Shown piece by piece: positions 1 through 38,540 of a stretch of 64,000 bases of DNA. Where the stretch lies: the IMG/VR virus record IMGVR_UViG_3300020579_000011, positions 6,522 to 70,521 of that record; one strand, given 5' to 3'. Position 1 is the first letter of the stretch; each line of letters starts with the position of its first letter. The position numbers and the translations under genes were made by a program. Source of the DNA: a virus. The notes below the pieces were generated by a model, which ran no database searches, was not told the origin of the DNA, and saw only the letters and a program-made list of their open reading frames with translations.

Positions 1-3000
1 ATTGTGATCGTGCAGGTTCCTGATGCGGTGATTTGGTTTGTAGTCCCGGCAATCGTGACCGACGTTACTCCTCCACCGCCACTAGGAGCATTGCCTATTG
101 TTTGGACTTGCCAATTCGTACCGTCGAAAACTTCCCATACAGGAGTATTGGCTTTGATGTCTCCAGAAGCGAGCGCTGTGCCATCCCATTTCTGAACGGG
201 GGCTGCGGAAGTCGAATTTACGTTCTCAGTGAGCGCTCCCGTATTTGCGGTCGTTGTGTAATAAATAATCGCATCACCTTTGACCGGCGTGAACGAAGGC
301 GAAGTCGTACAGGATTGCGCCGTTCCAGAGCCAGACGAATCAGAGCATTGCAGTGGCAAAGCGATGCCATGGCCTGTGGCCGAGGCCAGTGTCTTATTAG
401 CGCCAGCAGCTTGGACAACGGCACCGTTCGCAAAATTGGATGACGCCGTGACGATGTTGCTTGGGGCCAAGGAAAACTGTGTATAGGTTAGTGACGACCC
501 AGAAGAACCGATGCTCGTCACCTGCGAAGTGAGCAGCCAGCTCGTTGTCGCGTTCACTGTTCCCGACTGGACAGGAATTGATCCGGTGTTGTTCACATCA
601 GAAGGCGTGTCGTAGTCGAGCGCACGAGTGAATACGGCGGAGATCCCGGTCGTGCCGACGATAGTAGCCGTGTAGACACCGTTCTGGCTCGCCGTTGTCT
701 GGTCTTTGAGCAGCACGCGCTGGCCGATTGTGTTTATAGCTACTCCATCCAGCGTGAACGCGCCGGTAGCCGTGATCGTGAAAGTATCGCCGATACCTCC
801 ACCAACTTGGTTATAGGTGCCTGTTAGGTTGCTGCCGGTCGTAGCGGCGAGGACCGCCACAGCCGGATTGACTCCTGCAACGGCGTTATTGACAGCCGTA
901 GTAACGAAAGAATCCGTTGCCAAGTCATTCGAGCTGTCTCCGGCACTCTGCGTCGTCGCCGTTGTGCCGCTTGGCAGCGCTGGAGTGCCCGACAGATTCG
1001 CAGCCGTGCCTGTGGTGTTATTCGCCAGTGTCGCGCTAGAGGCGTCTATAATCTGGCTGCTTGAATTAGTGCCCACAATCGTCTTCGATGCCGGGACAGC
1101 CGCGCCATTCACTTTCACGACTGAGGTAGCGCACGCTCCTGCGGAAGTCGTCGCATCGCCGGTCAAGGCTGGCATAGCGGCGCATGGTAGACCTGTCGCA
1201 TTTGTCAGAGTCAATGTTGTCGGAGTCCCAAGGTTCGCGGTTTGGGTGATGCGTACTTCCCAAATTCCGCTTGCTCCTTGAGTCAGGGTTGCGTATTGAC
1301 CATTCCCCAGCGTAAAGGACGTTGCTCCGTCCGTCGCTGAAGTGCCATTGAATACACTGAACGTGTCTGGACTCGTGCGCCCGAAAACTAAACTCCCAGC
1401 ACCGTCGTCTATAACCGTTACTGCGAATCCTCCCGTGCAACCTGTGGCTGTCGATAGGGGCACAATGGGTGCGCTTGCACCTGATTGGAAACGCAAAATA
1501 TGTACGCGGTCAATGAGAGCTGTAGAACTATCGCACTGGATTGTATAGCCCGACGACGTGACGACAGCCCCGCCGTTGCCATCCTGAACGCCAGGAGACG
1601 AGAAAGCGGGGGCAGAGCCGTTTACTGCAACTAAACTTTGTCCAGTGACTTGACCGACGATGCTACCGAGGGTGGAACTTGTTGCCCAATCCGTAACTGC
1701 GTTCGCCGTGCCCGTGCCCGGACCGCTTCCGCCAGAGCAGCCGGCAGTTGTCGCACCGCCATTTGAATCCGTGCAAAGAGTTGCTGCCGTGCCGCTCACG
1801 GTGCCCGCAGTAAGGATTTTTGTATCCGTGCCCTGTTCGCCGGTGAGTGCGGTTCCGCCGTTGACCGATAAGCTTGTGTTCGCCGTAATCGTGGTTCCAG
1901 TGATGGCAGCCGGCGTGGTCCCGCCAATAGCGCCAGGGCTTGGAAAAGAGACAGTAGAGCCGCCTAGAGCTACAGCCGTACCAGCGATATTGATTGAAGA
2001 ATGAGCGAGGCCGGTGTTTGCGAGCGAATTGTTCGTAACATTGCTCAAATTTGTAACAGTGGGATTCGGGTAGGCTCCGCCGAAGTCTCCGCCTGCCGCT
2101 TCGGTTGAATACATTGCGGCATTACCGTTGAAGGATGGAACCTGTAATGTGTTCAGAACGCCAGTGGAGGTAACCCAGACTTCTTTCACTGCGTTTAGTT
2201 CGATGTCGGTGCAATCGACGCTTATCCCCGATGGGCAGTTCGTCGTCCATGGCACGGAACTGGTAGAGGAAGGCGCTAGGACAAATCCTGTATTCGTGTT
2301 TGTCGCCGCTCCAGTGATTGACGGCCATCCGGTTGACCCGCTCGCGCTTGCCGTGATCGTCATACCGTTACTCGCCGCGCCAAAGGTGACATTTGTTCCA
2401 GCGATGAGCGGGGCACTGCCTTCGTAGTCCGTGAATGTCGCCGTGTTCGCGTAGATTGGAAAGACTTGCCAATTTAGCAAGACTGGAACTGTGGCTGTCC
2501 CATTAAAGGTATCGCCGCCCGCGAGAGCAACCGTAGCGGTCGTGCTGCCGATGGTCATTATATTTGCGAACCATCCTGTCGATGGTTGAGCAGCGGGCAG
2601 CGTGTAGGCACACGCGGAACTGCAATTCATTAAGACAAGTTTTCCATTGTCGGATGTGCTTGCGGTGTGATTCGCGGTGTAAGTGACCGTCCCTCCGCCT
2701 GCGCCACGGCAGATGTTATCTCCGCCTAAAAAATTAGAGGAATTACATCCACTGCCGAGCACTCCAATCGCTCCAGAGAAGTCTGGTAAGGTCACGGTGC
2801 GGTTGGCTGTGATCGCGGAGACGATGGATTCCACAAATCCATTGTTGAGGATGTTGAAAGAGGTCGTGTTGATGCCCGCGCTGGTGATGGACTGGCTGAG
2901 GGCTAGGTTTTGGGTTGGGGCACTGATACCACAATTAGCCGACGTATCTACATAAGTAAGTCCCGGACCCGCACCAGAAAAACTGTCGAAATTAGCACAA

Positions 3001-5552
3001 TTATAGGAAGCATTCGTGGTAAAGGCCCCATTACGCCATATGGCATAATTAGCGGCCCCGTTGACGGGTACAGCAGGCGTAGTTATCGTTACCGTCTGGT
3101 TACCCGTAGTGGTGGTCACACAACTTTTTGGTCCAAGCGTAGTTAGGTTTCCGTTCACGTCAACAGCCGCGAGAGAATAGCAGATATTGCCTACCGGAAC
3201 GCTGCCGCCGCTGCTTACCACTACCGAAGCAGCAGCGGTCGGAATGGCCATCTGGTAGCCCACCTCTCCAGTACCAAAAACATTGAGCGTGTTGTTTCCA
3301 AAATTCGAGTCGTGGTAGGAATTAACGTTCTGTCCGCTTATCGCGTTCCCCACGGCCAACCCGACCGGCTGGCCCGTGAGATAACCGTAACCCGAGGCGG
3401 GGCCAGCAAAAGAGTCAAAGATAGATAACTTGCCACCGTAAGAACCGCCATTTGTGGTTAGGTTGGCTACCATCGCCGTGCTTGCCGTATCCAGCTCGAC
3501 GTTACTGATGGTGATGTTTCCGCCCACATTTCCAGCGCCGAGATTCGCTATCGCCAAAAACGGAGGAACGTTTCCCTGAATACGAGTGTTGCCGCTGATT
3601 GTTATATCTGTTCCCGAACCTCCCGTGAGCAGAAAGATACCCCGCCCACTCAAACTAAGATTGGTCAAAGCCGCGTTTGAACTAAGGTAGAAGACGGGTG
3701 TAGAACTTCCCGGACCCTGGTTGGCAATCAAGGCTATGTGGTCAAAATTATTACTAAAGACTCCCGCCCGTAGCATCAGCGGCATGGACATCGGGCCAGC
3801 GGTCGCGTCAAAGTTGACGTAGTTCATGCTATCGTTTGAGGCGCCGTCTTCCAGTACCGCAACCGCAGCATTTCCGGCGCTAAATTGGACGCCAGTAATT
3901 TGGTTAATCCCGTTCGAGGCATAGACGGCAGGATTAGCCCTTAAACCTTGGATAGAACCACCAACTGGGTAGCCGAAAGATAACGAACTATTCGTCTGCG
4001 CTCCAAGCGTGCCAAAAATCTTGGTACCACCACTAACCTCCATCGTGTCATTGAGCGCAAGGTTTGAACCCGCGAGGCTAATGGCAAGCGTATACGCCGA
4101 AAGATTCAAATAAGAGTTCGTCACATACGAATTTGTACTACCAGGAAAATAAAGCAAGCTGTTGAAGCTGCAATGGCTCGCCGCCGTGACGATGTTGGGT
4201 GTGTTGTCGAAGAGGATGGTCGCACCCGAAACCGAGGTGCTTGCGGAGTTGGCCAGCGTAAGCGTCGTGGTGCCCGCACCGGACACGACGGTAGTCACCA
4301 GCGGGTCGGCTTGCGCGGAGACGGGCGGCGTGCTAGGTACGAAGTACGGAAAGAGTTGCCCGCTCATCATCGTGGAACCGTAATCCTGCCAGGTGGTATC
4401 TGGCGTTAGCCCATTGACCGTGCTCTGTACCTTGCTTACACCCGCCAATGTCAGCGATCCGCTCGGCCCTGCGTAAACGTAATAGCGGTAGGCGTTGGCC
4501 TGCGAGGTCCAAGTAAGCTTATTGTCGTACCAATAGTTAAGGGTCCCGCCCGCACCCGAGACGGTTGGTGCCCCCGAGGACACCGCGTTCCCGGTCAGAT
4601 AGGTAAAATGGTTCGCGTCCGTGACCGTGACGTTGTACCACCCGCCGAAGTACAGGTTGTCTGTTCCGTTTACGTTCGGCGTCGTAATGTTAACCCACGC
4701 GCCCGTAGAGAGTCCGTGTGCAGTAGCCGTGGCCGTCACGGTCTGCCCGGAGCGCGTGAAACCGGAGATGGAAACGGTCTGGTAGCCCAACGCGGCTTGC
4801 CCGGTCGAGGTGCAAACCTGTGAGGTCGCGGCGCTTAGTCCGCCCGCCTTATCTTCCGCCAGGATGGCGTAGCAATACTGCGTCGAGCCAGCAACCGAAG
4901 CCACGTCAAAACCCGTGCCGGTCGGAGCCGAGGAAACGCTCGGCGTCACCGCAAGGCCCGTGGGCGTGGTTATGCTGTTCGCCGGTCCAGCACCGAAGAC
5001 CACGACTCCATCCCCATTCTGAAAGGAGCTCGCCGAAGAGAGAGCGCAAGAAGTCGAGCTGATCGTGCAAGTAATTCCAGGAATGGCAGGAGCGACGGCC
5101 TGATTAACCGCCCGCACTCCATAGGCTCTCACATCGGTATAGGGATTCGGACCTTTGCCTTGAAAGTCTCGCGTAGTAGAGAATACTGTTCCGCTGTCTG
5201 CTTCCCCTGAAGTGACAAGTGTTCCCACTCCGTTGGTGGATTGGATGGTTCCCAAGGGACCAGCGGCCGAAGACCCACCTCCAGGACAAACGTTCGCACC
5301 TACTGAGTTCAGGCATGTCAGTTGACCTGTTCCTGAATCGCAATAAGTACGAACCTTTCCTGTGGGTGGATTTCCTGGACTGGCTATGCACACGTAGTCC
5401 GTGATGGACTGCTGCGTGATAATATTCTGAAAACTAAATTCGTCCGTGTCGCGGTATTCGACACGTATATTCCTTGGGCCGTCGTCTTTCTTTTGTGCGA
5501 AAGCGGGGATACACGCCAGCAAAAGAAAGATGATCGCCAGTTTTGATTTCAT
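1..5552 (-). CDS. Giant Ser/Thr/Gly-rich tail fibre/adhesin-like protein with N-terminal signal peptide (>=1850 aa, runs off the left edge)
   Basis: ATG at 5552 opens MKSKLAIIFLLLACIPAFA-QKK. Hand translation stays open to position 3, and the ORF is absent from the track because there is no stop in the window. Contains a DVRAYG beta-helix-type start, Fn3-like YCYAILAED, FCCH-like AHGLSTG and fibre motif QRVLLKDQTTASQNGVY. Confidence 0.85.
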   Translation of the reverse strand, partial: MKSKLAIIFLLLACIPAFAQKKDDGPRNIRVEYRDTDEFSFQNIITQQSITDYVCIASPGNPPTGKVRTYCDSGTGQLTCLNSVGANVCPGGGSSAAGPLGTIQSTNGVGTLVTSGEADSGTVFSTTRDFQGKGPNPYTDVRAYGVRAVNQAVAPAIPGITCTISSTSCALSSASSFQNGDGVVVFGAGPANSITTPTGLAVTPSVSSAPTGTGFDVASVAGSTQYCYAILAEDKAGGLSAATSQVCTSTGQAALGYQTVSISGFTRSGQTVTATATAHGLSTGAWVNITTPNVNGTDNLYFGGWYNVTVTDANHFTYLTGNAVSSGAPTVSGAGGTLNYWYDNKLTWTSQANAYRYYVYAGPSGSLTLAGVSKVQSTVNGLTPDTTWQDYGSTMMSGQLFPYFVPSTPPVSAQADPLVTTVVSGAGTTTLTLANSASTSVSGATILFDNTPNIVTAASHCSFNSLLYFPGSTNSYVTNSYLNLSAYTLAISLAGSNLALNDTMEVSGGTKIFGTLGAQTNSSLSFGYPVGGSIQGLRANPAVYASNGINQITGVQFSAGNAAVAVLEDGASNDSMNYVNFDATAGPMSMPLMLRAGVFSNNFDHIALIANQGPGSSTPVFYLSSNAALTNLSLSGRGIFLLTGGSGTDITISGNTRIQGNVPPFLAIANLGAGNVGGNITISNVELDTASTAMVANLTTNGGSYGGKLSIFDSFAGPASGYGYLTGQPVGLAVGNAISGQNVNSYHDSNFGNNTLNVFGTGEVGYQMAIPTAAASVVVSSGGSVPVGNICYSLAAVDVNGNLTTLGPKSCVTTTTGNQTVTITTPAVPVNGAANYAIWRNGAFTTNASYNCANFDSFSGAGPGLTYVDTSANCGISAPTQNLALSQSITSAGINTTSFNILNNGFVESIVSAITANRTVTLPDFSGAIGVLGSGCNSSNFLGGDNICRGAGGGTVTYTANHTASTSDNGKLVLMNCSSACAYTLPAAQPSTGWFANIMTIGSTTATVALAGGDTFNGTATVPVLLNWQVFPIYANTATFTDYEGSAPLIAGTNVTFGAASNGMTITASASGSTGWPSITGAATNTNTGFVLAPSSTSSVPWTTNCPSGISVDCTDIELNAVKEVWVTSTGVLNTLQVPSFNGNAAMYSTEAAGGDFGGAYPNPTVTNLSNVTNNSLANTGLAHSSINIAGTAVALGGSTVSFPSPGAIGGTTPAAITGTTITANTSLSVNGGTALTGEQGTDTKILTAGTVSGTAATLCTDSNGGATTAGCSGGSGPGTGTANAVTDWATSSTLGSIVGQVTGQSLVAVNGSAPAFSSPGVQDGNGGAVVTSSGYTIQCDSSTALIDRVHILRFQSGASAPIVPLSTATGCTGGFAVTVIDDGAGSLVFGRTSPDTFSVFNGTSATDGATSFTLGNGQYATLTQGASGIWEVRITQTANLGTPTTLTLTNATGLPCAAMPALTGDATTSAGACATSVVKVNGAAVPASKTIVGTNSSSQIIDASSATLANNTTGTAANLSGTPALPSGTTATTQSAGDSSNDLATDSFVTTAVNNAVAGVNPAVAVLAATTGSNLTGTYNQVGGGIGDTFTITATGAFTLDGVAINTIGQRVLLKDQTTASQNGVYTATIVGTTGISAVFTRALDYDTPSDVNNTGSIPVQSGTVNATTSWLLTSQVTSIGSSGSSLTYTQFSLAPSNIVTASSNFANGAVVQAAGANKTLASATGHGIALPLQCSDSSGSGTAQSCTTSPSFTPVKGDAIIYYTTTANTGALTENVNSTSAAPVQKWDGTALASGDIKANTPVWEVFDGTNWQVQTIGNAPSGGGGVTSVTIAGTTNQITASGTCTIT

Positions 5553-5564
5553 TTACGCAGTCCC

Positions 5565-6242
5565 TTAAACGCTCAACTTGATGATGCCCGTAGGTGCCGT
5601 TCCAGACAGACCGGTAATCCTCACGCGCAGGAAGTTCACCCCGTCGATTGCAACATTGCGGATTTCTCCGGCTGCGTTTGTGCTGGTGTCGAGCGTGGCG
5701 TATTCATTGTCAATGTCGTTCAGCGAGCCTTGTAGAGTGGCTGTGATTCCCGCAGGCGCAGACGGATAGGAAGTCTGCCACGTAACGGTCATTGCGTTTG
5801 CCGCATCTCCGGTAGGACTCTGAACGGCGCACGGTAAGCTCGAAGAATTATTTGTCAGCGCCTCGGCTACTTCCGCTATGGGAACTAAAGCCGTGCCAAA
5901 ATCGGCGGTTGTCGCTAGTTGCGCGGTCGTCAGTGCGAAAGTAATCGTGCCGATGCCACTTGTCGTGTCAATGACCACGTTCGAGATGGCGACGTTCGTT
6001 ACGTTGTAGGCTCCAGATGCGCTCATGGTCCCAATGATTGTGATGAAATTTCCAATGATGGGAATGGGGCCTTCGAGAATCTTCACGCCGACAGTGGCAT
6101 TGTTCGAAGCATTGGCGGAGACACTCGTGACCTGCATTCGTGTGGTGGGTTTGCCTTGCGACTTCGAGCCAAAAGCGTAGAAGTTAACCCCTGTGAGGAG
6201 CATGGTCGCCGGGGCAGCGAACGGGGACGCATTGTAAATCAC
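5565..6242 (-). CDS. Virion structural protein (beta-rich)
   Basis: GGAGG RBS then GTG; Thr/Ala/Ser-rich; C-terminal ATLQGS...FLRVRIT jelly-roll-like pattern common in phage structural proteins. Confidence 0.6.
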   Translation of the reverse strand: MIYNASPFAAPATMLLTGVNFYAFGSKSQGKPTTRMQVTSVSANASNNATVGVKILEGPIPIIGNFITIIGTMSASGAYNVTNVAISNVVIDTTSGIGTITFALTTAQLATTADFGTALVPIAEVAEALTNNSSSLPCAVQSPTGDAANAMTVTWQTSYPSAPAGITATLQGSLNDIDNEYATLDTSTNAAGEIRNVAIDGVNFLRVRITGLSGTAPTGIIKLSV

Positions 6243-6301: not shown

Positions 6302-7291
6302 TCAAAGCACAGAAATTTGCGCGTTGGGTGGAAGCGTAACGCTGTTCAGCCGTTTGGGAAGCCGGTCCAAAGTTAATTCCGAACGGAAGTCGCTCTCCCA
6401 GCCACCGGGAAGCGTCACGCGATAGTGAAATTCACGCTTTGGGAGGACGTACCCGATTTCTCGCTCCACCACTTCGCGCGTGAAAAGGTCAGCTCGCCAG
6501 TAAGGATCGGCAATCAGTGATTCCACTTGGGCGATGCGTTCTTCTAGAGTGCCCTCGAACTTCGGACCTGTTGGCCGGTTGTAACCTGAACAGCCCAGAT
6601 GAGCGCCTTTGGCGATCCCGTTCCACGCGACTTGTCCCTTGTCTGCTTCGATGCAATATTGCCAGACTGCATCTTGCTCGTAGAACCCGGTATTTTCCTG
6701 ATTGCCTTTGTTGTGGAGCAGGGAGTCCGGAAAAGTGCTCAAGATGTATTCACGCATCGAATTGTAGTAGAGCGGGTTAGCGTGCTTGATGACTTGAGCC
6801 AGTTTCTCGCGCCTAACAGAATATGAAGGACTGTAAAACCAAGCAGCAAACATCAAATCATCCGAGATCGGAGCTTGCCGATTGAACACCCAGCCGCAGG
6901 CGCAGAAAATACCTGTGAACATTTCGTGAGTCTCGCGGTACCAATTCAGACACTCTGGTCCTTGCATGAAGTCATCTTCGCTCACTATCACTAAGCCGAT
7001 TTGCTGCCCGTATGCCCACCGGAGCATCTCCATTGTTGCGTAACTATTCCCGTAGTAATCGTGCCTTGGAATGATCTCGACTCCGGCCCAAAACTCTCCG
7101 CAGACGTGACGCAGTTCTGGGTTATCATCGCCTCGGTCACTGAACACAACGATGGGTATTTTCTTATCTTGCTCACGGATGCGCTTCAATGCGCAGTAGA
7201 GAAAATGATTCCGCTGGTAGGTCAAGACGCAACAAACTTCTTTGTAGAGATACACGCTCACATCCTTTTGAAGTGCCAAAGATTCTCCCAT
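6302..7291 (-). CDS. GT-A fold glycosyltransferase
   Basis: VLTYQR...IVVFSD...IVSEDD (DxD-like) pattern. Confidence 0.7.
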   Translation of the reverse strand: MGESLALQKDVSVYLYKEVCCVLTYQRNHFLYCALKRIREQDKKIPIVVFSDRGDDNPELRHVCGEFWAGVEIIPRHDYYGNSYATMEMLRWAYGQQIGLVIVSEDDFMQGPECLNWYRETHEMFTGIFCACGWVFNRQAPISDDLMFAAWFYSPSYSVRREKLAQVIKHANPLYYNSMREYILSTFPDSLLHNKGNQENTGFYEQDAVWQYCIEADKGQVAWNGIAKGAHLGCSGYNRPTGPKFEGTLEERIAQVESLIADPYWRADLFTREVVEREIGYVLPKREFHYRVTLPGGWESDFRSELTLDRLPKRLNSVTLPPNAQISVL

Positions 7292-7890
7292 TCAAGTTCG
7301 CGCACTGGCCGGATGCCGTAAGGTTGCAGAAAGGAAACAATCTCCGCCATTGGCGAAGTCTCTCCGCGCTTCGCGTACACTTCATCGGTCCAGACTTCTA
7401 GAAATAGATGCTCGACGGTCTTGAGTGTCCGTACGGCTCCTTTGAGGACACGCAGTTCCATGTTCTCCACGTCGATCTTGAGCAGTTTGACGTTTTCTAA
7501 GTTGAAATGGTCAAGCGTTTCTGTCTTGAACGTTTCGCCTTCATCGGGATTCATCTGTTCGCCGCGCTCTCCGACTAAAGCGTAGTTGAATGGCAGGCAG
7601 TTCTTGACGTGGTTGCCGTTGATGTTTTTTAGCAATTTCAAATAGTATTCGTGCTTCGACTCGAAGGCATAGACGCGCTTTGCTGGACAGAAGAGAGAAA
7701 AGAACAGAGCGTGCGTGCCGATGTGGGCTCCAGCATCTACATAATTTCCTTGCACGTCCAAACTGCGAATCACTTCTAAATTCTTCAGCTCATACCAGCA
7801 TACGTTGAGCAAGCAGTTTCCAATGTGGCTCTTTTCGTCCACGTCGAAGAAAGTCACTTCGCGGCCTTCGTATATTATTTTAGCGTCCAT
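7258..7890 (-). CDS. FkbM-family SAM methyltransferase
   Basis: VDAGAHIG, VYAFE, KIDVENMELRVLKGA motifs. Confidence 0.9.
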   Translation of the reverse strand: MDAKIIYEGREVTFFDVDEKSHIGNCLLNVCWYELKNLEVIRSLDVQGNYVDAGAHIGTHALFFSLFCPAKRVYAFESKHEYYLKLLKNINGNHVKNCLPFNYALVGERGEQMNPDEGETFKTETLDHFNLENVKLLKIDVENMELRVLKGAVRTLKTVEHLFLEVWTDEVYAKRGETSPMAEIVSFLQPYGIRPVRELEWENLWHFKRM

Positions 7891-8636
7891 CAGCGCGGTC
7901 TATACAGCCAATGAGCTTCATGGTCGAACCCTAGATTTGTTCCGTCATAGCCAAGCGATTCCATGAGCGCATAAATGTCTTTGGGATTTTGCTGGTAGCG
8001 TTCGATAACTGCATCCTCGTGGATACTCACCCACACCAAAGGCCGAATTTCACGCATGGTCTTCTCGGCTCCGCGCAGTACCATCAATTCTGCCCCCTCT
8101 ACATCTATGGTAATGGCGTTCGGCCTGTATCCCGTTAGCGAAACGAAGCCATCTAGAGTTAGCCTGGGGATATCTTTTCCATCCTCGTTGATGTGTCGGA
8201 ATTTTGTATTCGTGAGAATCTTACCGGCCTTTGCTTCCTTGGGCCAAGAACCGTGATGGATAGTTATTATTCCTGGCTGTTCACTGTGCGCAAGAAAAGC
8301 CTTTGTGCAACACTTAGGAGTTTGCAATTCATTTGCTCGCCAAGTTTCCATGAGACTCGGCCACAATTCAACACAAGGCTCAAACAGGCACATATTTTCA
8401 GCGCCTACAAATTGCGCGTAGATGGCGGAAATCCAGCCAATCTCCGCTCCTACGTCGAATAGAATGTCACCGCGCTTCAAATTCTCTTCCATTGAAGCGA
8501 AACGCATCTTTTCCCACCACGGCCACCACGCATGATAGTCCGCGAGAAACTTCGGGATCTTCACCTTATAGCGGTCGCAGACGAGTTGCTCCACCCATTC
8601 GACTTCGGAGAGTGGTATGAAAGTGTCAGGCATCAA
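7890..8636 (-). CDS. FkbM-family SAM methyltransferase
   Basis: FDVGAEIG, LFEP, IDVEGAELMVLRGA motifs. Confidence 0.9.
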   Translation of the reverse strand: MMPDTFIPLSEVEWVEQLVCDRYKVKIPKFLADYHAWWPWWEKMRFASMEENLKRGDILFDVGAEIGWISAIYAQFVGAENMCLFEPCVELWPSLMETWRANELQTPKCCTKAFLAHSEQPGIITIHHGSWPKEAKAGKILTNTKFRHINEDGKDIPRLTLDGFVSLTGYRPNAITIDVEGAELMVLRGAEKTMREIRPLVWVSIHEDAVIERYQQNPKDIYALMESLGYDGTNLGFDHEAHWLYRPR

Positions 8637-9370
8637 AACACCATGAGTTCGTCGAATTTACTGTCAGTGCCTCGCGCGTCAAGATGAAGTGACCGATGGA
8701 AATTGCCATCAGGAATGTATGTCGCCACTTTCCATTCTTCCCAAGGTGAGTGCTGCACATAGGTCATCAATCGGTCTTCGATCATCGTGTTGGCTTCGGG
8801 ACTGAAAACGTTCATTGCGCGCTTGTAAAGTTCCACGGTCGCAACGTGAGGCCGCTGAGACCATTGCCTCGTCTTCCATAGCGGCACGCCATGAGATTCG
8901 AATTGCTCCTCGTACAAGTAAAGATGATACGGGCAGACGCGAGACTCAGGCAGGAACCGGACGCAACTAACATCACCTGAGAGCAGGGCGTCTACGATTC
9001 CTTGCCAGTCGATAGGACGGTCTGTGACGAGAGGACAATCGTGCTCTACGAACATAAGCAAAGGAGTCTTTACAAATGGGAGCGTATAGCGCGTCATTGC
9101 GACTTGATGTACATGATTTTCAAACAGCCATCCAAATACACGAAACTCTCCACTTGTTTCTCGTTCCAATAATCTGTCCACATACTCAAAGTAGTCTCCT
9201 GCTCTAGCTTTCCACTGCTCCTTACGGACTCCATCAACCATAATGATAATTCTCGCGCCTGGCAACCAGTGCCGAATACTGGCAATCGTCTGGTCGATTA
9301 TCTCCGTGGACGGATGCGCTTTGATAGGCGATGTTGGAATCAACACCGTTATGGCTTCGTCAGGATTCAT
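8633..9370 (-). CDS. GT-A fold glycosyltransferase (paralog of 9367-10098)
   Basis: VLIPTSP..HPS, MVDGVR, FVEHD, QWSQRPH, HLDARG motifs shared with its neighbour. Confidence 0.7.
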   Translation of the reverse strand: MNPDEAITVLIPTSPIKAHPSTEIIDQTIASIRHWLPGARIIIMVDGVRKEQWKARAGDYFEYVDRLLERETSGEFRVFGWLFENHVHQVAMTRYTLPFVKTPLLMFVEHDCPLVTDRPIDWQGIVDALLSGDVSCVRFLPESRVCPYHLYLYEEQFESHGVPLWKTRQWSQRPHVATVELYKRAMNVFSPEANTMIEDRLMTYVQHSPWEEWKVATYIPDGNFHRSLHLDARGTDSKFDELMVF

Positions 9371-10098
9371 TCTTTGCCTTCAAGCACTGAATGAAATTTA
9401 ACGTCGTCGCCGCGACCGTCGAGATGTCGAATCCTGGCCATCGGTCCATGTGGCGTGTAAATTGTTAGCCTATTTTCTTCCCAATCGTCACATTGACCGT
9501 ACAGTCTGTCTTCAAGGTAGCAACGATCGTCTGGCTTTAGATGCGCGTCAATCATTTTGCGATAGTAATCCACAAAGGCTAAATGTGTACGCTGCGACCA
9601 CTGGATAGTTTTAGTTAATGTGGAATATTTTTGCAGCGGTCCAAGCATGAACTGCTCCCACTCCGGCTTTATTGAATCTTCGAGCATGAAACGAATCACG
9701 TTGACTTCACGCCTAGCATTCATAACGGCACATACATCTCCCCACGGAAACCAAATGGGAAGTAGGGCTTGGTCATGCTCCGTAAACAGAATCAACGGAG
9801 TCTTAACCTGCTCAATCCCTTTTGCGATTGTCCACGCTTGGTGCTGCCATTCAGGAAACACAATTAGCCGCACGTTTTTCCATCTTTCAAGGGACAGAGT
9901 TTCCAAGCGAATCACAAACTCGCTGTAAGCCGCGCGATGATGTTCCTGCTCTGGCCGTACGCCATCGCAGAGAATCAGTATTTCCGCAGTCGGCAAGTGC
10001 CAGCGAACCGAATCAATTGTTTCTTCGATCAGGTCTGTGCTTGGGTGCTTGGGGCTAGGAGATGTGGTAATCAGCACAGTGGTCAGATTGTCGATCAT
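9367..10098 (-). CDS. GT-A fold glycosyltransferase
   Basis: VLITTSP..HPS, LCDGVR, FTEHD, QWSQRTH, HLDGRG. Confidence 0.7.
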   Translation of the reverse strand: MIDNLTTVLITTSPSPKHPSTDLIEETIDSVRWHLPTAEILILCDGVRPEQEHHRAAYSEFVIRLETLSLERWKNVRLIVFPEWQHQAWTIAKGIEQVKTPLILFTEHDQALLPIWFPWGDVCAVMNARREVNVIRFMLEDSIKPEWEQFMLGPLQKYSTLTKTIQWSQRTHLAFVDYYRKMIDAHLKPDDRCYLEDRLYGQCDDWEENRLTIYTPHGPMARIRHLDGRGDDVKFHSVLEGKE

Positions 10099-10415
10099 GG
10101 CTTTTTAGATTCAGGTTTGGGGATGGCGACAAACTCCAATTTCTGACGGTCAACATTCCAATCTTTTTTTTCGATTTTCGCTTGTTTGTACGCTTCGTCT
10201 ATAGCGGCTTCAATGCCTTGGTCCATCTGCGGGACTTGCATCTCAATTTCCTTCATGCGAGATTGCAACTGGCGGTATTCGCCGACGACGTTTGCGCGGT
10301 CGAGCTGCAAGCGGAGAATCTTCACCTTTGCATCTGACGGAAACACTGGAGCTTCTGCGGCGCGAGCGAGGCCGAGAGTAAAAAGTAAGGCCACTGCAAC
10401 GAGACATTTTTTCAT
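10095..10415 (-). CDS. Small secreted coiled-coil protein (possible fibre chaperone)
   Basis: AAGGAG RBS; signal peptide MKKCLVAVALLFTLGLARA; heptad helix. Confidence 0.65.
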   Translation of the reverse strand: MKKCLVAVALLFTLGLARAAEAPVFPSDAKVKILRLQLDRANVVGEYRQLQSRMKEIEMQVPQMDQGIEAAIDEAYKQAKIEKKDWNVDRQKLEFVAIPKPESKKP

Positions 10416-10428
10416 GTTGTTTCTCCTT

Positions 10429-11316
10429 TTATAATGCTCCGAGATCGTGAAGGTCCTGGTGAAGATTCTGTTTGAGTGACTCTTTCCATGCCGCCCACCA
10501 CATCCGCACTATATTATTTACAGAAGGCCAATTGCCTGACCATATCTCAAGTAGTACAGGCAATTCATTCCAGTCCTTAATTATAGAAAGGGGACACGCT
10601 CCAAAAACACGCTCCCAATATTCGGGATATGGTCCAGTCGGGGATGCCGCATCAAGCAGCGCCACAGCACCCAACTCTAGCGCCTCGCAAACACGAAACG
10701 AATCTACCGTCAGCGGCCCAGAGGGACAAGGAATCACTTTTGAACGCGCCATGAGTCCGTAGTATTCAGCCTGCGAGATACCCTTTGCGAAGCCATCGCT
10801 TCCGTGGAATTCCCATTTCTTCAAGGACATCGCAATCTTAGGAAACTGCGACATCATATCCCATCGACGTTTGTGCGTGATTTGGCCAGCAAAAGAGCAA
10901 TCTAGCGTGCGCTCAGGCCATGCATCAACCCGGCAGTTTGGCGTCCAGCCCCATGGGATATAACGCGATGCCGTTTGATGCTTGTGTGGAGTTTGCAACC
11001 ACACTCGGCAATTGCGTGGAATGAATACTTTATCTTCAACGTGGATGGCGAGCAAGTCTCCGTCGCGCGTAACACCCATCCCGCCATCTTCATTCGCTGT
11101 GATTATCAGCAGGCACCAAGAAAGCGGCGTTATAGTTTTCGCAAGATTGTTTAAATCTCTGTCCCAATCCGCTTTGATGACGACGATTGCTCCGTCGCCT
11201 TGAACTTCTTTCACGTCCATGCGGTGCGTAAAGCCCTCCGTCAGCCACTCGACGATTGCGTGACACCACGAGCCCCTCTGCCCTCCGTACCACAGCACTT
11301 CAATCTCTTTCGGCAT
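10429..11316 (-). CDS. Exostosin/GT47-like glycosyltransferase
   Basis: FAGQ...RR, YYGLMARSKVIPCPSG, SFRVCEALELGAVALL. Confidence 0.8.
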   Translation of the reverse strand: MPKEIEVLWYGGQRGSWCHAIVEWLTEGFTHRMDVKEVQGDGAIVVIKADWDRDLNNLAKTITPLSWCLLIITANEDGGMGVTRDGDLLAIHVEDKVFIPRNCRVWLQTPHKHQTASRYIPWGWTPNCRVDAWPERTLDCSFAGQITHKRRWDMMSQFPKIAMSLKKWEFHGSDGFAKGISQAEYYGLMARSKVIPCPSGPLTVDSFRVCEALELGAVALLDAASPTGPYPEYWERVFGACPLSIIKDWNELPVLLEIWSGNWPSVNNIVRMWWAAWKESLKQNLHQDLHDLGAL

Positions 11317-11488
11317 TGGATACCTTTCGTCCACACTCAGCGCAAAATCTAGGTTTCAAGGTGTCGTCGAGATCATTCACGTAATAAAAGATGGCGTCGC
11401 ACTCTGAGCAATGAAGTTGGAGTACCTCCAGCGTGCGCTTCTCCATGAAGCCGATGTGTGTTTCCTGTTTCAGACGATTCGAGGCCAT
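11300..11488 (-). CDS. Zinc-ribbon protein
   Basis: CSEC...CAECG. Confidence 0.55.
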   Translation of the reverse strand: MASNRLKQETHIGFMEKRTLEVLQLHCSECDAIFYYVNDLDDTLKPRFCAECGRKVSNAERD

Positions 11489-11497
11489 GTGATTTTC

Positions 11498-11626
11498 CTA
11501 CGGCTGAAAATTCTCGATGGTATCGTAAAGCCACTTGAGTCCGAGCGCGAGTATCGCCAAGACAATGCCGAACACAAGAAGCAAATTCCAATACCTACGC
11601 AGTATGGTTACGCACGAGGGTGTCAT
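11498..11626 (-). CDS. Small single-TM protein
   Basis: ATGA overlap with upstream stop; hydrophobic LLLVFGIVLAILALGL. Confidence 0.45.
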   Translation of the reverse strand: MTPSCVTILRRYWNLLLVFGIVLAILALGLKWLYDTIENFQP

Positions 11627-13506
11627 TTGAACACCGTATCCAAGACCGATTGCACTCGATGTGTGTACGTCCCGCACTCGCGGATATAATCCATGCACTC
11701 TCGCACGATGGCACGGCGCTCCACCGGCATTTGCAGCCAGCGGTCAATCTGCTCGCCAAGGTCTTCAAGATTCTGCGCTTGGTAAGTAGCACACGGCATC
11801 GTCAGACCCTCAAATCGGGGATAGAGCAGGAACCCGCCACGCCCGCAGGTCTCGTAGAGCCGGTCAGAGGCGTAGTGAGGTACTCCTGAAAAAATATTGT
11901 CTCCCACGCAAACTTTCATGGAAGCGTACACGTCATTGAGCTGCGATTCGCGGACACCCTGAAATGTCTTGAATCGCGCTCCGTACTTTGTCCTCAAAAA
12001 CTCAATCAGCTCCATGCGAAAAGGATATTCTCTGTGGTAGCTTTCGATAGCTCCGACAAAACCGACATCGCAGAACAAATCTCCGCGTGGGAACCCGTAA
12101 TGCACGCCGCGCTCGACAACTGCAGGTTGTAAATAATGATGATTCACTCCGCGTTCCAGAAATTTCTCCTGGTTTCCACCATCGGCGGTAAAAAGATGTG
12201 AACATTTCCAAAATGGCGTCTTGCCAATGCGCTCCTCGCGCTCCGGGATGCCCCAATAGCGGTCCAAGTGGTACCCGACTGAAGGGATGCCTCTTTCTTT
12301 GAGGCATTCCATGAATCGAAACATTTCTTCGTCGGGAGCTACTTGCCAGCCGTGCGTGTGTACAAACATAAAAAGGTCTGCATCACAAACAGCGCCTTGC
12401 AATTCCTGAATCGTGCTCTTGTCTTCTGGGACGCGAATTACTTCATGGCCGAGATGCTCAAGTGACCAAGCCAAGTCCGATTCTGTACAGAAGCTGTGGG
12501 AAAAGTTGCCGAGAAACGCGATTCTCTTTTGTCCAACAAACTCGCGGTGAACTCTTGTCGGCCCAGTTGCGACGATCTCAGGTCGCAGTCCGTCAAGATG
12601 GCTCTTCAAAATGTCCTTGAATAGTTCGTTGTCGTTTTCCCATTCGACGCGCGGCGGTGTCTCCCACGCAATCGGCAGGAGTTCCATTTCCAGCATCTTT
12701 TTAGCCGCTACATGAATGTCGATAGCTGAAACTTCATATATCGTCGCGAGGCCGAATGAGGATTTGCCTGTCGGTCGAACCCAAGCCGATACACACGCAA
12801 TCTCATTCATCGGCGGGCCGTCCACGGTAAGGATCGCCGCATTGACGGACAGAGATTCGTGCAACGCCGCTCCATACCCTTCCGTACCGCTTGGGTGCAA
12901 GTGGAACGCATGAGAGTTTTGCAGCCGCTTCAACTCTTCTTCACTGACACGCTCCAATACAGTTACATTGGCAGGCAGTTCCACGCCTTTTAGTTTCTGG
13001 CTGATGATGGTTAGTTCCGCTCCGATGCCCTCGCCATTCTGCTTCCATCGAAACGCATCCGTGATCGCGGTCGTATTTCGCAAAGATGAGTTACCGCCAA
13101 CGTGAAGAAAACGCCGTTCTCGCGCAATTGTTGGGTCGTATTGGTCACGACTCAGGAAGCCAAGGCAAAACGTCATGCCGGGAAATATTCCTTCGAGGAT
13201 TCTCTGTGCTTCGTTAGTTTTCGCAAAGACTTTGACGAAGTTACGCTTCACTACCGGAATCAGGTCTTGCGTAAACCATTCTGGATTCACCCATAGCCAG
13301 CGAATCGGCGCTACGGAAAAGAGGTGCCGCGAGACAGTCTCAAGAGAAATAGATAGTTCGCAAACGGGGAAGTTTTCCGGCAGAGGTGCGTCATATTGCA
13401 GGCCGTGTACTTCGTGGCCGAGTTCTTCAAGATAGGCGCGAAGTAGTTGGTATTCGCACTGGAGACCGAGGCCCCCATTGATGTTCGAACAAATCGCTAT
13501 GCGCAT
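11623..13506 (-). CDS. Two-domain GT-B glycosyltransferase (GT4-like plus CgeB-like)
   Basis: HPSGTEGYGAALHES in the N-domain; DVGFVG, YASDRLYETCGRGGFLL, TYTHR in the C-domain. Confidence 0.85.
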   Translation of the reverse strand: MRIAICSNINGGLGLQCEYQLLRAYLEELGHEVHGLQYDAPLPENFPVCELSISLETVSRHLFSVAPIRWLWVNPEWFTQDLIPVVKRNFVKVFAKTNEAQRILEGIFPGMTFCLGFLSRDQYDPTIARERRFLHVGGNSSLRNTTAITDAFRWKQNGEGIGAELTIISQKLKGVELPANVTVLERVSEEELKRLQNSHAFHLHPSGTEGYGAALHESLSVNAAILTVDGPPMNEIACVSAWVRPTGKSSFGLATIYEVSAIDIHVAAKKMLEMELLPIAWETPPRVEWENDNELFKDILKSHLDGLRPEIVATGPTRVHREFVGQKRIAFLGNFSHSFCTESDLAWSLEHLGHEVIRVPEDKSTIQELQGAVCDADLFMFVHTHGWQVAPDEEMFRFMECLKERGIPSVGYHLDRYWGIPEREERIGKTPFWKCSHLFTADGGNQEKFLERGVNHHYLQPAVVERGVHYGFPRGDLFCDVGFVGAIESYHREYPFRMELIEFLRTKYGARFKTFQGVRESQLNDVYASMKVCVGDNIFSGVPHYASDRLYETCGRGGFLLYPRFEGLTMPCATYQAQNLEDLGEQIDRWLQMPVERRAIVRECMDYIRECGTYTHRVQSVLDTVFK

Positions 13507-24175: not shown

Positions 24176-25183
24176 CTACATGCTCTGCATCGGACCGACT
24201 GAGAGCAAACTTGTCCCATCCCAAATAAATTGCTGCACATTGCGGATGTTTGGTGTCGGGTCGATTGTGCCTTGTCCCACCATATTCGTGGGCCAAGTCA
24301 TCACACGGGCTCCCGTAGCGTCCTGTTTAATCACGAACGTATAGAGCTGTCCGACAACTCCACCGGAGAACGTTGAGGAACTGACATTCCCAGAAAGCGT
24401 CATAACGAAAGAATTGTTCACCGCGCCATTGAATGCGGGGGTAGCGGAAAATGAGGGCGTCGCAGCGGCAGGTAAATCGGCCGGCTGCATCAATCTAGCC
24501 GTCACAGCTCCAAGGCCACCACTGGCAGGGCCAGCGACAATTAAATTTGGAAGTTGCGGCGCGAAATCAAACGCTAGGGCGAGCACACCAGTTGCCGTGA
24601 CAGGACCGCCAGTAAATAAGCCAGTGAAGAGAGCTCCAGGCGTCACCGAAGCGTTGATACTTGTTACTGTGCCGATGCCACCGCCAATGTCTGCCGCTGT
24701 CAGTTGCCGCCGTGTAGGAGCGCCAGGACCGCCAGATGCGGGACCGACGATAACTGTGCTGTTCGGCCAATCGGTCGAGTAGGCAAGCGCGAGGACGCCA
24801 GAAATCGTGACAGGCGAGCCAGTGACCGCATATCCAGTAGGTACACTAAGTCCAACACTATTTGTCGATCCGCCACCCGGCGTGACGATTTGCTGGTCGG
24901 GGAAAATTTGTGGATTGGGTGCGATGCGATTGTAAGTGTCCGAATAAACTAGTGAGTACACGCCAACTGGAGCGTAAAAGTGAAAATTCCCGTTGCCATC
25001 GGCTTGAATAGGATTCGGAAGAATGGTTGCGCCAGTGGAATCTGTGTAGAGCGTAGCCAGCGGAGCAGGAGGGATAGTAATCGGATTTGTCGGCGACGTG
25101 AGTGGCTGGTTGCACACGTAGACGTTGCAGCCAGGAACCGCTTCTCCGATTGCATTGATGATGATGCCGTCAAATCGGTTCAT
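24176..25183 (-). CDS. Virion fibre-like protein
   Basis: LATLYTD...NPIQADGNGNFHFYA head-binding-like N-terminus; GTVTS repeats; IKQDATGARVMTWP C-terminal fibre motif. Confidence 0.7.
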   Translation of the reverse strand: MNRFDGIIINAIGEAVPGCNVYVCNQPLTSPTNPITIPPAPLATLYTDSTGATILPNPIQADGNGNFHFYAPVGVYSLVYSDTYNRIAPNPQIFPDQQIVTPGGGSTNSVGLSVPTGYAVTGSPVTISGVLALAYSTDWPNSTVIVGPASGGPGAPTRRQLTAADIGGGIGTVTSINASVTPGALFTGLFTGGPVTATGVLALAFDFAPQLPNLIVAGPASGGLGAVTARLMQPADLPAAATPSFSATPAFNGAVNNSFVMTLSGNVSSSTFSGGVVGQLYTFVIKQDATGARVMTWPTNMVGQGTIDPTPNIRNVQQFIWDGTSLLSVGPMQSM

Positions 25184-36839: not shown

Positions 36840-36951
36840 TCTCGCGTTTCACCTTGCGCGTGGCCTTAGGATAATTGGCCTGCATGAACATCTTCGCGCC
36901 AACTCGCTTGAGAGCGCGGACTTGCTGGCGGGTTAGGAGTTGCTCGCTCAT
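36778..36951 (-). CDS. 57-aa basic protein (not in track)
   Basis: ATGA overlap with terL stop; MSEQLLTRQQVRALKR. Confidence 0.5.
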   Translation of the reverse strand: MSEQLLTRQQVRALKRVGAKMFMQANYPKATRKVKREIASELAKRKVAPVPVHKNPD

Positions 36952-38540
36952 TTACTCGGTTGGCGAAGTTTTGCAGCCCATGTAGGTAGTGATGGCGGCT
37001 TTGGTCCTTGCCGTTCTTTGCGTTGCTGCTCGTTATACACTTTGTAGCCTGCCATGAACTTTGACATGGGTTCCTTGATGGCGTCAAGACGTGCTCTCAA
37101 TTTCACAGATTCTGGTACATCTGCCTCATCCAAAAGTGCGCCTGCTATGGCGTAGCGTGCTGAGTCGCCCATGTCGTCAGCTAGGCTCATACCCTTTGGC
37201 TTGACCACATCTTCGATTGAGGTAGCCGTGCCGTCGCCACGGACGAGAAGCGGAATGGATTCAATCAGCACAGGGCAATCGGTCGTGATAAACCAATCGT
37301 CCGTATCCAGTAAGTCGTACATCTTCTGCCAGCCGGCGACTCGATCTGTATTCGAGCGCGTTGGACGCGGCAAACCGGCAGCGGCAAGAATATCGCCAAC
37401 TTCATCGGCAATCGTGAAGTCACCCTGCGTCTTTATGAAACGCTCCCATGAGAAGTGAATCTGTTCAATGTTCATCGCCAACTTTTGTGCGCGCAGTCCG
37501 CCAACCATGGCAATCAGCGCCTCAGCCTGTTCCTTTGGTGTGTTCTTGTGGAGGTAGAGTTCGCCGATGGTTACGTTGACCGTGCGAAGAGTTGGCTGAC
37601 CGTGTTCGTTGAGCCTTGCTGAATCTTTGTAAAGCGCCTTCGTGAAAACCGTGATGCAGGCATAGTGACCGAATCCGTAGTCCCATCCAATCCAAGTCGG
37701 CTGCCATTCTTGGAAAATTAGTTCTTCTTTGAATTTGATGTGCCTCGAAGCGTCCCAATTCTCGAAGTATTGGCCGGAGACCGTATCTAGTCGTCCTTCA
37801 AAGATGATCCCACGTTTCGGTGAGGCTTTGAGAGTCTGGATATATTCGCGGTTGTTGGCGTAGGTAGGATTATCGAGAACTGTCGAGTGGAAATATTCGT
37901 AATCGGCAGCGTTGTACATTTCCGGGTCCATGCCGATGAACGGCTTCTTGTCCACCCAAAGTTTCTTGATCCAGCCCCAGCCTATGCCCATGGGATTCGT
38001 TACGCCAACCATGCACGGACGCGAGCCAGGAATCGGACAGCGATTGCGGCCACACAGGGCGTCCCAAACAGCAAAACTGAACTCGCCTAACTCTTCAAAA
38101 CCGATGAATACGTATTCTGTCGAGAGGAATTTGCCTACATCTGCGTCACGCTCGCAGGCCGAAAGATAAAGTTTCGATTGTGCTCCTGTCTTTGGATCTG
38201 GATGGTGGTAAAGAATATGGTCCGTATGGTTATAGGTGTCGTAGGCTTCCCGTGGAATGACAGCGAGGAGTTTATCAACTACTGTGCGCTTCAGGTCAGG
38301 GATCGTCTTGCGAAGGATGAGACTGTTTGAGCCGGGATACTCTAGCCCATGGATGAATGCTTCCCAGAGCATAGCCAAACTTTTGCCGCTACCATAGCCA
38401 CCGACCTCAAGTCGATAGCGTGCGCCTGATTTGTGGAAATCTTCTTGAGGAGCTGTCTCGCGGCCAGGTTGCTTGGGCCATGGTCTGTAGTGGTCAGAGA
38501 TGCGGAACTGTGGTGGGCCGGTTTGAGCTGCTGCTGGCAC
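36948..38540 (-). CDS. terL: Terminase large subunit
   Basis: Walker A GGYGSGKS, Walker B FIGFEE, motif III VTNP, DNP, nuclease GWDYG and DDMGDSARY. Confidence 0.95.
   Translation of the reverse strand: MPAAAQTGPPQFRISDHYRPWPKQPGRETAPQEDFHKSGARYRLEVGGYGSGKSLAMLWEAFIHGLEYPGSNSLILRKTIPDLKRTVVDKLLAVIPREAYDTYNHTDHILYHHPDPKTGAQSKLYLSACERDADVGKFLSTEYVFIGFEELGEFSFAVWDALCGRNRCPIPGSRPCMVGVTNPMGIGWGWIKKLWVDKKPFIGMDPEMYNAADYEYFHSTVLDNPTYANNREYIQTLKASPKRGIIFEGRLDTVSGQYFENWDASRHIKFKEELIFQEWQPTWIGWDYGFGHYACITVFTKALYKDSARLNEHGQPTLRTVNVTIGELYLHKNTPKEQAEALIAMVGGLRAQKLAMNIEQIHFSWERFIKTQGDFTIADEVGDILAAAGLPRPTRSNTDRVAGWQKMYDLLDTDDWFITTDCPVLIESIPLLVRGDGTATSIEDVVKPKGMSLADDMGDSARYAIAGALLDEADVPESVKLRARLDAIKEPMSKFMAGYKVYNEQQRKERQGPKPPSLPTWAAKLRQPSK

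Follow-up and report, generated by a model that had tools for sequence, protein, structure and literature searches.

A giant phage tail-fibre-like protein carries a conserved Sec-type signal peptide and co-varying cysteines and may mature outside the cytoplasm

The viral record IMGVR_UViG_3300020579_000011 of IMG/VR, a contig of 70,521 bp that is classed as linear and that CheckV estimates to be 100% complete, encodes a giant tail-fibre-like protein, P0002, which begins with a signal peptide of the Sec type. The stretch of DNA analyzed here, referred to as the window, is 64,000 nucleotides (nt) long and corresponds to bases 6522-70521 of this record. The form of the signal is conserved in most relatives of P0002, the protein can be identified as a fibre or tailspike, its gene and those of its relatives are found in a phage context, and its cysteines (Cys) co-vary in pairs. 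The reading that we prefer, and that we put forward tentatively, is that a temperate, short-tailed-like phage of Acidobacteriota uses P0002 as its receptor-binding fibre and that the protein is synthesized as a Sec pre-protein with predicted export.

A sequence-only reading of the window had reported an open reading frame (ORF) of at least 1850 amino acids (aa) at its left end. This ORF is real (positions 3..5552, minus strand); the 1850 aa encoded in the window are the first part of P0002, which is open at the window edge and is complete at 2448 aa on the contig (G000:C1:4727-12073, minus), with its last 598 aa encoded to the left of the window (contig C1:4727-6523, minus). The N-terminus reads MKSKLAIIFLLLACIPAFA↓QKKDD, the arrow marking the predicted cleavage position, so that the AFA↓Q site followed by QKKDD is present as described. 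An in-frame TAA is located immediately 5′ of the ATG, a Shine-Dalgarno-like hexamer, AAGGGA (5561..5566, minus), ends 8 nt 5′ of this ATG, and the gene 5′ of P0002 terminates 12 nt ahead of it. The only other early in-frame starts are a TTG at codon 11, which falls within the hydrophobic core, and a GTG at codon 54. Since residues 20-53 are kept at the protein level in the related proteins P0005, P0011 and P0026, a true start downstream of the hydrophobic segment, which the earlier reading had named as a finding that would overturn it, is excluded by the TAA, the positions of the start codons and this conservation taken together.

The signal peptide (aa 1-19; 5496..5552, minus) consists of the n-region MKSK, a 14-residue hydrophobic core and A-x-A at positions -3 and -1, with Gln at +1. 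It thus shows the basic n-region, the uncharged core of 7-15 residues and the small residues at -3/-1 that are the criteria for a substrate of Sec and signal peptidase I. Here and below, signals were called with a heuristic for n-, h- and c-regions that was made for this analysis and is not a trained predictor. On the contig it flagged 7 of the 84 ORFs, five of them strongly, namely P0002, P0003, P0004, a 106-aa ORF and a 238-aa protein with an immunoglobulin (Ig) domain. The first three are consecutive genes and make up three of the five strong calls. P0002 also has a lipobox-like LLAC ending at Cys14; this column holds Cys in only one of the 33 aligned sequences, and a lipoprotein (signal peptidase II) signal, for which the lipobox Cys should be invariant, was rejected for that reason.

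Conservation of the signal in homologues was one of the checks that the sequence-only reading had proposed, and the outcome favoured it. A signal was called in 26 of 34 database homologues, 17 of the 26 having Gln at +1, and at least two further homologues have one hidden behind an over-long called start. Among 26 loci in metagenome-assembled genomes (MAGs), of which 24 belong to Acidobacteriota and 2 to Verrucomicrobiota, 20 carried a signal by the heuristic and 24 when a motif shared by the missed ones was allowed; among the IMG/VR viral loci the fraction was 18/23. These database, MAG and IMG/VR sets overlap and are related, and their counts are not independent. When the relatives with a detectable core were pooled (n=83), 69 had a signal, 13 had none and one was open at its 5′ end. 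The alignment used for the locus search was A2, built from 10 of the 35 family proteins; a larger one, A1 (33 of 35, with P0027 and P0033 left out), was too diverse. A HMMER search with P0002 aa 1-1000 returned 805 cluster representatives at E<=1e-3, and the 138 that were new among the best 150 of these 805 matches were taken as distant representatives; 84 (strict rule) or 85 (loose rule) of the 138, about 61%, carried a signal, and some 10 more were visibly signal-bearing. The conserved core of the family corresponds to aa 100-940 of P0002. The 20-340 residues that precede it vary by lineage with the signal retained, so that conservation extends to proteins in which the adjoining mature N-terminal domain differs. 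Furthermore, the n/h/c design and the cleavage site are retained across sequences that are 28-50% identical, and the signal sequence itself drifts.

As judged by sequence and structural modelling, P0002 appears to be a phage fibre with a built-in beta-helix depolymerase module. A sequence search of the PDB matched aa 1529-1707 (432..968, minus) to the tail fibre of Legionella podophage LME-1 (9EFK, chain AE, one of 18 chains) with E 1.3e-19; 9EFK is described as the portal-tail complex of this phage, in which the fibres form six trimers (PMC12407071). Modelling of aa 1-1000 with AlphaFold, from a 34-row alignment, gave a mean predicted local distance difference test score (pLDDT) of 75.9; the score exceeded 90 over most of aa 140-900, and 407 residues were at pLDDT>=90. 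In this model the mature N-terminal region (aa 20-100; 5253..5495, minus), which has 4 Cys and is common to P0005, P0011 and P0026, is of low confidence; it is followed by beta-sandwich domains of the Ig/FN3-like kind with pLDDT >90 (about aa 140-410; 4323..5135, minus) and by a right-handed parallel beta-helix of the tailspike/depolymerase type (about aa 420-745; 3318..4301, minus), both with approximate boundaries. Residues 1-54 were modelled with low confidence as a short helix and then coil, with the segment unpacked against the fold. Foldseek against the PDB matched the model to Kp7 gp52 (1.2e-4), the K2-2 tailspike protein (TSP), CBA120 TSP2 and P22 TSP, and also to tailspike-like bacterial glycanases, e.g., GH87 and polygalacturonase; in BFVD the match was the tailspike of Salmonella phage FSL SP-029 (7.7e-15). 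With tblastn against cultured phages only aa 1572-1674 of P0002 matched, in annotated tail fibres of Melnitz, Mosig, CRP-603 and Ralstonia phages. The description of P0002 as tail-fibre-like is therefore correct, because both the tailspike matches of the model and the LME-1 domain match point to it. Pfam and PHROGs gave nothing for P0002, the full-length protein having 0 Pfam families at E<=0.05, and at this threshold no outer-membrane or surface sorting domain, i.e., a type IX secretion system (T9SS) C-terminal domain, PEP-CTERM or autotransporter, was found in it. PDB sequence searches with P0004, the 1512-aa, 269-aa and 335-aa proteins and the N-terminal profile A4 gave no match. As controls, the fibres of three cultured phages that share a domain with P0002 were analyzed: those of Melnitz (648 aa) and CRP-603 (879 aa) contain 0 Cys and that of RS-AB1 (524 aa) contains 2, all three being without a signal, and the same heuristic called an N-terminal signal in 0 of the 29 coding sequences of the tail regions of these phages. 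This agrees with the premise of the sequence-only reading that tailed-phage fibres normally lack signal peptides.

The part of P0002 encoded in the window contains exactly 29 Cys, the figure that had been estimated by hand, and the mature full-length chain contains 37. The five Cys motifs that had been quoted were located at aa 162-169, 977-981, 1106-1114, 1260-1272 and 1736-1748. The further statement that the Cys lie mostly in close pairs held only in part: the spacing statistic is marginal, with 12 gaps of <=15 residues where 7.4 are expected (p=0.04), and is not significant in most homologues, but pairing is borne out by covariation. In the core alignment, 18 of the 29 variable Cys columns have a co-varying partner, i.e., one at most 120 columns away whose presence pattern is the same, versus 0-11% for each of the 19 other residue types, which share the same alignment and relatedness. 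The pairs differ by lineage; for example, covariation predicts 227-247 and 852-874 for P0002, and 192-238 or 229-242 occur in others. The gain and loss of Cys in pairs, as expected of disulfides, is well supported by these alignments. The signal-less virion proteins on the contig have 0-0.96% Cys: the 749-aa and 493-aa late proteins, which have no family match (13722-17433, minus), and the 448-aa scaffold-like protein (30371-31717, minus) have none, and the 1512-aa protein (19130-23668, minus), of which only the C-terminal half is conserved, as a 982-995-aa gene in relatives, has 5. The capsid, scaffold and 240-aa proteins of the elements found in MAGs are also free of Cys. Cys avoidance seems to be a rule for signal-less virion proteins, on the contig and in the MAG elements alike. 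The paired covariation and the contrast with Cys-free virion proteins would argue for a different folding compartment for P0002.

The contig is that of a tailed phage, because its minus-strand operon runs from a large terminase (36948..38540, minus; phrog_2 with 9e-32 and Pfam Terminase_3), which heads the late genes, through an 836-aa portal-like protein, head genes, the 1512-aa protein and a glycosyltransferase/FkbM block to three big genes, and its plus-strand arm encodes a helicase, an exonuclease, a DNA methylase, a repressor-like protein and an M15-peptidase endolysin. In the MAGs, phage structural neighbours were observed beside the P0002 homologue in 26 of 26 loci. Where a module is whole, the homologue is located between head genes and a 982-aa gene, to which the 1512-aa protein is homologous in its C-terminal half; in phage CRP-603 the signal-less fibre gp58 comes right after the coat gene, which is the equivalent position. 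The MAG contigs of 5 of the 26 loci, picked for their length, were searched, and the flanks were read in four of these; G001 was read end to end. Both flanks of these elements are syntenic host genes, with MATE, ParB-like and MOSC genes on the left and DsbA-like, NAD synthetase and cytochrome c maturation genes on the right. Four related Acidobacteriota MAGs (L012, L009, L020 and L010; flanks L053-L056 and L060-L064) carry the structural element, and in all of them it occupies one and the same chromosomal position. In G001 the element is about 28-29 kb long and comprises a 123-aa gene, the terminase, portal, capsid, fibre and tail genes and a few small genes after them; no integrase or replication genes were seen in the element, in the 16 kb read to its left or in its right flank. 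The ORFs of the MAG elements are intact and their terminases are 77-82% identical between species, and each element looks like a domesticated particle locus resembling a gene transfer agent (GTA) or a conserved defective prophage. Apart from the signal-bearing protein, no candidate of fibre size was present in the elements read; in G001 this holds up to the host flanks. The position of the gene and the lack of another fibre candidate in these compact relatives favour a role in the virion over decoration of the cell, although not decisively.

The relatives that have no signal fall into two classes. Those of the first have a different, typical fibre N-terminus and occur in phages that otherwise have no gene in common with this contig. 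Those of the second, with at least nine representatives, begin directly with the beta-sandwich that follows the signal in most relatives. On the contig itself, the position that the signal-bearing fibre takes in relatives (also in L041, the viral contig closest to this one) is occupied by the gene of a 335-aa protein without a signal (24176..25183, minus). In the alignment, the Met of this protein falls exactly on the start of the mature part of the relatives, and the protein has the same N-terminal beta-sandwich. In L043 the signal, a full 335-aa-like part and the core form one ORF. The signal-bearing and signal-less forms look interchangeable, since both the second class and the 335-aa protein start with the sandwich in an unsignalled form, and it seems that this phage has split or replaced the fibre gene of its ancestors, because the 335-aa protein occupies the fibre position of the relatives. 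In the model of this protein, aa 1-87 had a pLDDT of about 90 and residues 88-335 one of <50. The best structural matches of the sandwich in aa 1-87 were tail-complex chains of the cyanopodophages Pan3 and Pam1 (9VYG, chains m/n/o, and 7EEQ, chain A; E 3e-3 and 1.3e-2; root-mean-square deviation 2.8-2.9 A), and the next were generic transthyretin and carboxypeptidase-regulatory sandwiches; in Pfam, two of five N-terminal pieces gave sub-threshold CarboxypepD_reg matches. The post-signal beta-sandwich may thus be a putative tail-docking domain. When the 269-aa neighbour and the 95-aa beta-sandwich were predicted as a complex, the score was 0.00, which speaks neither for nor against binding.

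The five host MAGs all encode Thioredoxin_4 (DsbA-like) proteins and, in addition, a glutaminyl cyclase (Glu_cyclase_2, about 1e-95). The best Thioredoxin_4 match adjoins the element in all five, and a DsbA encoded by the phage was considered and rejected, as the flanks (NAD synthetase, cytochrome c maturation) show this to be a host gene and the phage of the window has none. The A-x-A↓Q design of P0002 is present in the host DsbA-like protein that adjoins the element; among 120 listed relatives of P0004, 89 bear a signal, and 78 of these show the design too. Gln usually comes first in the mature chain in the P0002 family, in the P0004 family and in host proteins in L054/L055. A +1 Gln/pyroglutamate rule has been described for Bacteroidota, and Acidobacteriota may follow such a rule as well. 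P0002 contains only 5 copies of D[ST][AILVMT], the O-glycosylation motif of the Bacteroidota type. Taken as a whole, the comparisons support a signal on P0002 that is real in form, conserved and matched to the host, with export and cleavage as predictions.

Our preferred reading, in which the fibre is exported, undergoes maturation in the periplasm and is added to the particle at lysis, is quite possible, and its steps would be as follows. SecYEG would move the unfolded P0002 chain across the inner membrane, signal peptidase I would cut it after AFA, and the new N-terminal Gln may be cyclized by the glutaminyl cyclase of the host. The chain would then fold, and its Cys pairs would become oxidized, outside the reducing cytoplasm, possibly with glycosylation. 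Meanwhile the capsid and tail would be built in the cytoplasm from nearly Cys-free proteins, and the fibre would meet the particles only once a holin has opened the inner membrane, its attachment being the last assembly step in the lysing cell. The endolysin of the contig (60398..60898, plus) is a soluble M15 peptidase without a signal or a signal-arrest-release (SAR) segment, which would imply a hole-forming (large-hole) holin. Export, cleavage, the compartment of oxidation and late attachment are the elements of this scheme that we infer. A wider version of it is doubtful: a lineage of short-tailed Acidobacteriota phages, together with derived GTA-like elements that keep only structural genes, would build its virions in two compartments, with the capsid and tail made in the cytoplasm and with Sec-exported, cleaved, pyroglutamate-capped, disulfide-bonded and perhaps glycosylated fibres attaching when the holin breaches the membrane.

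Several points weigh against a periplasmic fibre that joins the virion. To our knowledge it has no precedent among tailed phages. In the periplasm, a trimer with chains of 250 kDa would be physically awkward, and attachment within the short lysis interval would be inefficient. The even-number bias of Cys that could accompany pairing is absent (20 even and 17 odd counts among 37 proteins). Signal-less relatives carry Cys too, the median in the core being 0.74% versus 1.37% in signal-bearing ones (p about 0.05, uncorrected for relatedness), and oxidation could therefore simply follow release. DsbB and VKOR were each found in 0 of the 5 host MAGs, which may be incomplete, and the DsbA-like genes of the host could be reductive. 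In P0002, aa 20-100 are not the beta-sandwich of the relatives, and that domain resides here in the separate signal-less protein of 335 aa. Finally, P0004 belongs to a large family of secreted beta-helix proteins of Acidobacteria, and hence the whole distal block could consist of accessory secreted enzymes.

This last point leads to the strongest of the alternatives, in which P0002 is exported but is not a virion protein. It would be a secreted depolymerase or adhesin that acts, from the periplasm or after release, on the exopolysaccharide or O-antigen of the host together with P0003, P0004 and the sugar genes, with possible roles in receptor destruction, superinfection exclusion or freeing of the progeny from slime. 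We regard it as rather unlikely. P0003 (750 aa; contig C1:2478-4730, minus) and P0004 (827 aa to the contig end, C1:1-2481, minus; 924 aa at full length according to an identical database entry) both lie to the left of the window and begin with signal peptides, so that three consecutive signal-bearing genes come after the glycosyltransferase/methyltransferase block. The P0004 family has at least 334 members, mostly beta-helix proteins of 600-700 aa, 89 of the 120 examined have signals, and some relatives are encoded on bacterial contigs of 200-270 kb, and one member is named from an Acidobacteriaceae MAG; it is a cellular family of secreted enzymes in which the phage has a share. The beta-helix fold is common to free bacterial glycanases (GH87, polygalacturonase), and the conserved fibre position is held here by a separate signal-less protein. 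Against this, the signal-bearing protein is the sole fibre-sized candidate in the compact MAG elements, whose particles need a receptor binder, P0002 carries a domain of a solved virion fibre and is encoded inside a tightly packed late operon, and signal-less members with the same architecture exist.

It is improbable that the hydrophobic N-terminus is not used for export at all, so that the fibre would join the tail in the cytoplasm and the segment would be a relic acquired from secreted proteins of the host or would have a later membrane role in infection. Homologous architectures do exist with and without the segment, secreted A-x-A↓Q proteins are abundant in the host, so that such a capture is plausible, and the model leaves the segment unpacked against the fold. 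A relic would decay, yet the n/h/c design and the cleavage site have been kept at 28-50% identity, and the paired-Cys covariation together with the Cys-free virion proteins argues, as noted above, for a different folding compartment.

P0002 is very unlikely to be a fibre of the cell surface, i.e., a phage-derived adhesin that serves the lysogen or host and is expressed independently of particles, in the manner of the MAT fibres of Bdellovibrio. The latter are described as phage-like trimers with a signal, then a conserved beta-rich domain and then a variable fibre, and with disulphides in the structures (PMC10769870), a layout that P0002 resembles; in addition, the MAG elements look domesticated, occupy the same site in four related species and showed no integrase or replication genes in the G001 stretch read. 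The P0002 gene, in contrast, is embedded with short spacers between capsid and tail genes, Pfam found no domain for outer-membrane export or sorting in the protein at E<=0.05, and a complete 70-kb phage carries the gene too. The MAT fibre family is the closest cellular analogue, with the differences that, as presented in the same source, MAT fibres are encoded by cellular genes of the predator outside capsid/tail modules and are displayed on its own surface, and that many of them have an S74 chaperone-protease, of which Pfam found none in P0002 (PMC10769870). A tether to the inner or outer membrane by an uncleaved signal-anchor or a lipoprotein signal, with the fibre kept there until lysis as an assembly platform or a store, is highly improbable, for in spite of the lipobox-like L-L-A-C14 and the phage precedent of SAR endolysins as tethered and later released proteins (PMC6116005), the Cys14 column is Cys in 1/33 and the conserved feature is an A-x-A↓Q after the core, which points to cleavage by signal peptidase I.

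Podophage fibres and tailspikes (LME-1 9EFK, Kp7 gp52, K2-2, CBA120 TSP2 and P22) are like P0002 in combining a beta-helix with flanking beta-sandwiches, the LME-1 fibre is homologous to the central domain of P0002, and the P0002 gene is at the same fibre position of the late operon. These proteins have no signal, whereas P0002 has one, with 37 Cys in the mature chain, and with its 2448 aa it is three to four times longer. The pIII protein of Ff phages is a virion receptor-binding protein that has a Sec signal sequence and whose disulfides are matured in the periplasm before it enters the particle. P0002 as proposed here resembles pIII, as presented in PMC5155289, in being a virion receptor binder with a Sec signal. 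The Ff phages differ in that they belong to another virus realm and are extruded without lysis, and in that pIII is membrane-anchored until assembly; here, a terminase/portal phage has capsid and tail proteins without export signals and is presumably assembled in the cytoplasm. The coat proteins of filamentous phages are a further precedent for export of phage proteins by Sec. Among tailed phages, the Sec-exported and SAR endolysins (Lys44 of fOg44 and P1 Lyz) are described as late proteins that are exported by the host Sec machinery ahead of lysis (PMC6116005). They differ from P0002 in being lysis enzymes and not virion or receptor-binding proteins. PblA and PblB of the Streptococcus mitis phage SM1 are tail-fibre-like proteins that finally serve as adhesins on the surface of the bacterium; they are not known to have signals, are freed by phage lysis and then rebind. 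They resemble the cell-decorating option for P0002. Pantoea WceF is reported to be a tailspike-like beta-helix enzyme that acts on exopolysaccharide outside the cytoplasm; it and similar glycanases differ from P0002 in being products of chromosomal biofilm genes and, as far as that source describes them, in having neither a phage fibre domain nor a phage context (PMC7949094). In a search of the full text of the open-access literature, supplements excluded, no Sec signal on a tailed-phage fibre or spike was found described, and the text of the paper on Tunturi Acidobacteriota phages contains neither "signal peptide" nor "tail fiber". Assembly of tailed phages is taught as purely cytoplasmic. 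The absence of signal peptides has even been used, in one account, to argue for the phage origin of a fibre-like gene (PMC6199706).

Directly upstream of P0002 is a 225-aa gene without a signal (5565..6242, minus), the C-terminal part of which recurs in the MAG elements, where it forms the 123-aa gene at their left end. It is preceded by a cluster of sugar-modifying genes in the same operon (6302..13506, minus), which consists of 2 GT2-like genes, 2 FkbM methyltransferases, 1 RXYLT1_C-like gene, 1 GT1-like gene (627 aa), a 245-aa ORF without a family match and the 106-aa ORF with a strong signal peptide (10095..10415, minus). Viral contig L037 also has homologues of four members of this cluster ahead of its signal-bearing fibre. 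In L012 (13658-15376) and L009 (13657-15372) a 572-aa protein with at least 7 hydrophobic segments is encoded directly after the fibre gene, and it gave a sub-threshold match (7e-4) to PMT_2, a GT-C family of the protein mannosyltransferase/ArnT-like kind. Enzymes of this kind act at the periplasmic face of the membrane. The sugar genes could serve the glycosylation of an exported fibre or, alternatively, ordinary O-antigen conversion. The 238-aa protein (62943..63659, minus), the fifth of the strong signal calls, has the signal peptide site SKA↓Q and a He_PIG Ig domain. For the 1512-aa/982-aa protein, the protein Atlas gave a weak lead (0.85) to the C-terminal domain of a crAss-like muzzle. 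Among the head genes there is also a 117-aa Cpn10 (GroES-like) co-chaperonin (27690-28043, minus; Pfam 5.3e-7).

Acidobacteriota are a dominant soil phylum for which hardly any phages have been cultured. Relatives of P0002 come from a widespread soil phage group and are encoded inside the capsid/tail modules of Acidobacteriota phages and of prophage-like elements. From the conserved secretion signal on a receptor-binding fibre it would follow that the protein has probably left the cytoplasm by the time it encounters the particle or takes effect at the envelope. If P0002 and its relatives are part of the virion, there would be a periplasmic maturation step with access to disulfides, glycans and pyroglutamate, and hence to tougher fibres for life in soil; otherwise, they would form a large group of secreted envelope enzymes that phages encode and that pass for fibres. 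In either case, the annotation of such genes and the modelling of host range and adsorption for phages of Acidobacteriota would change.

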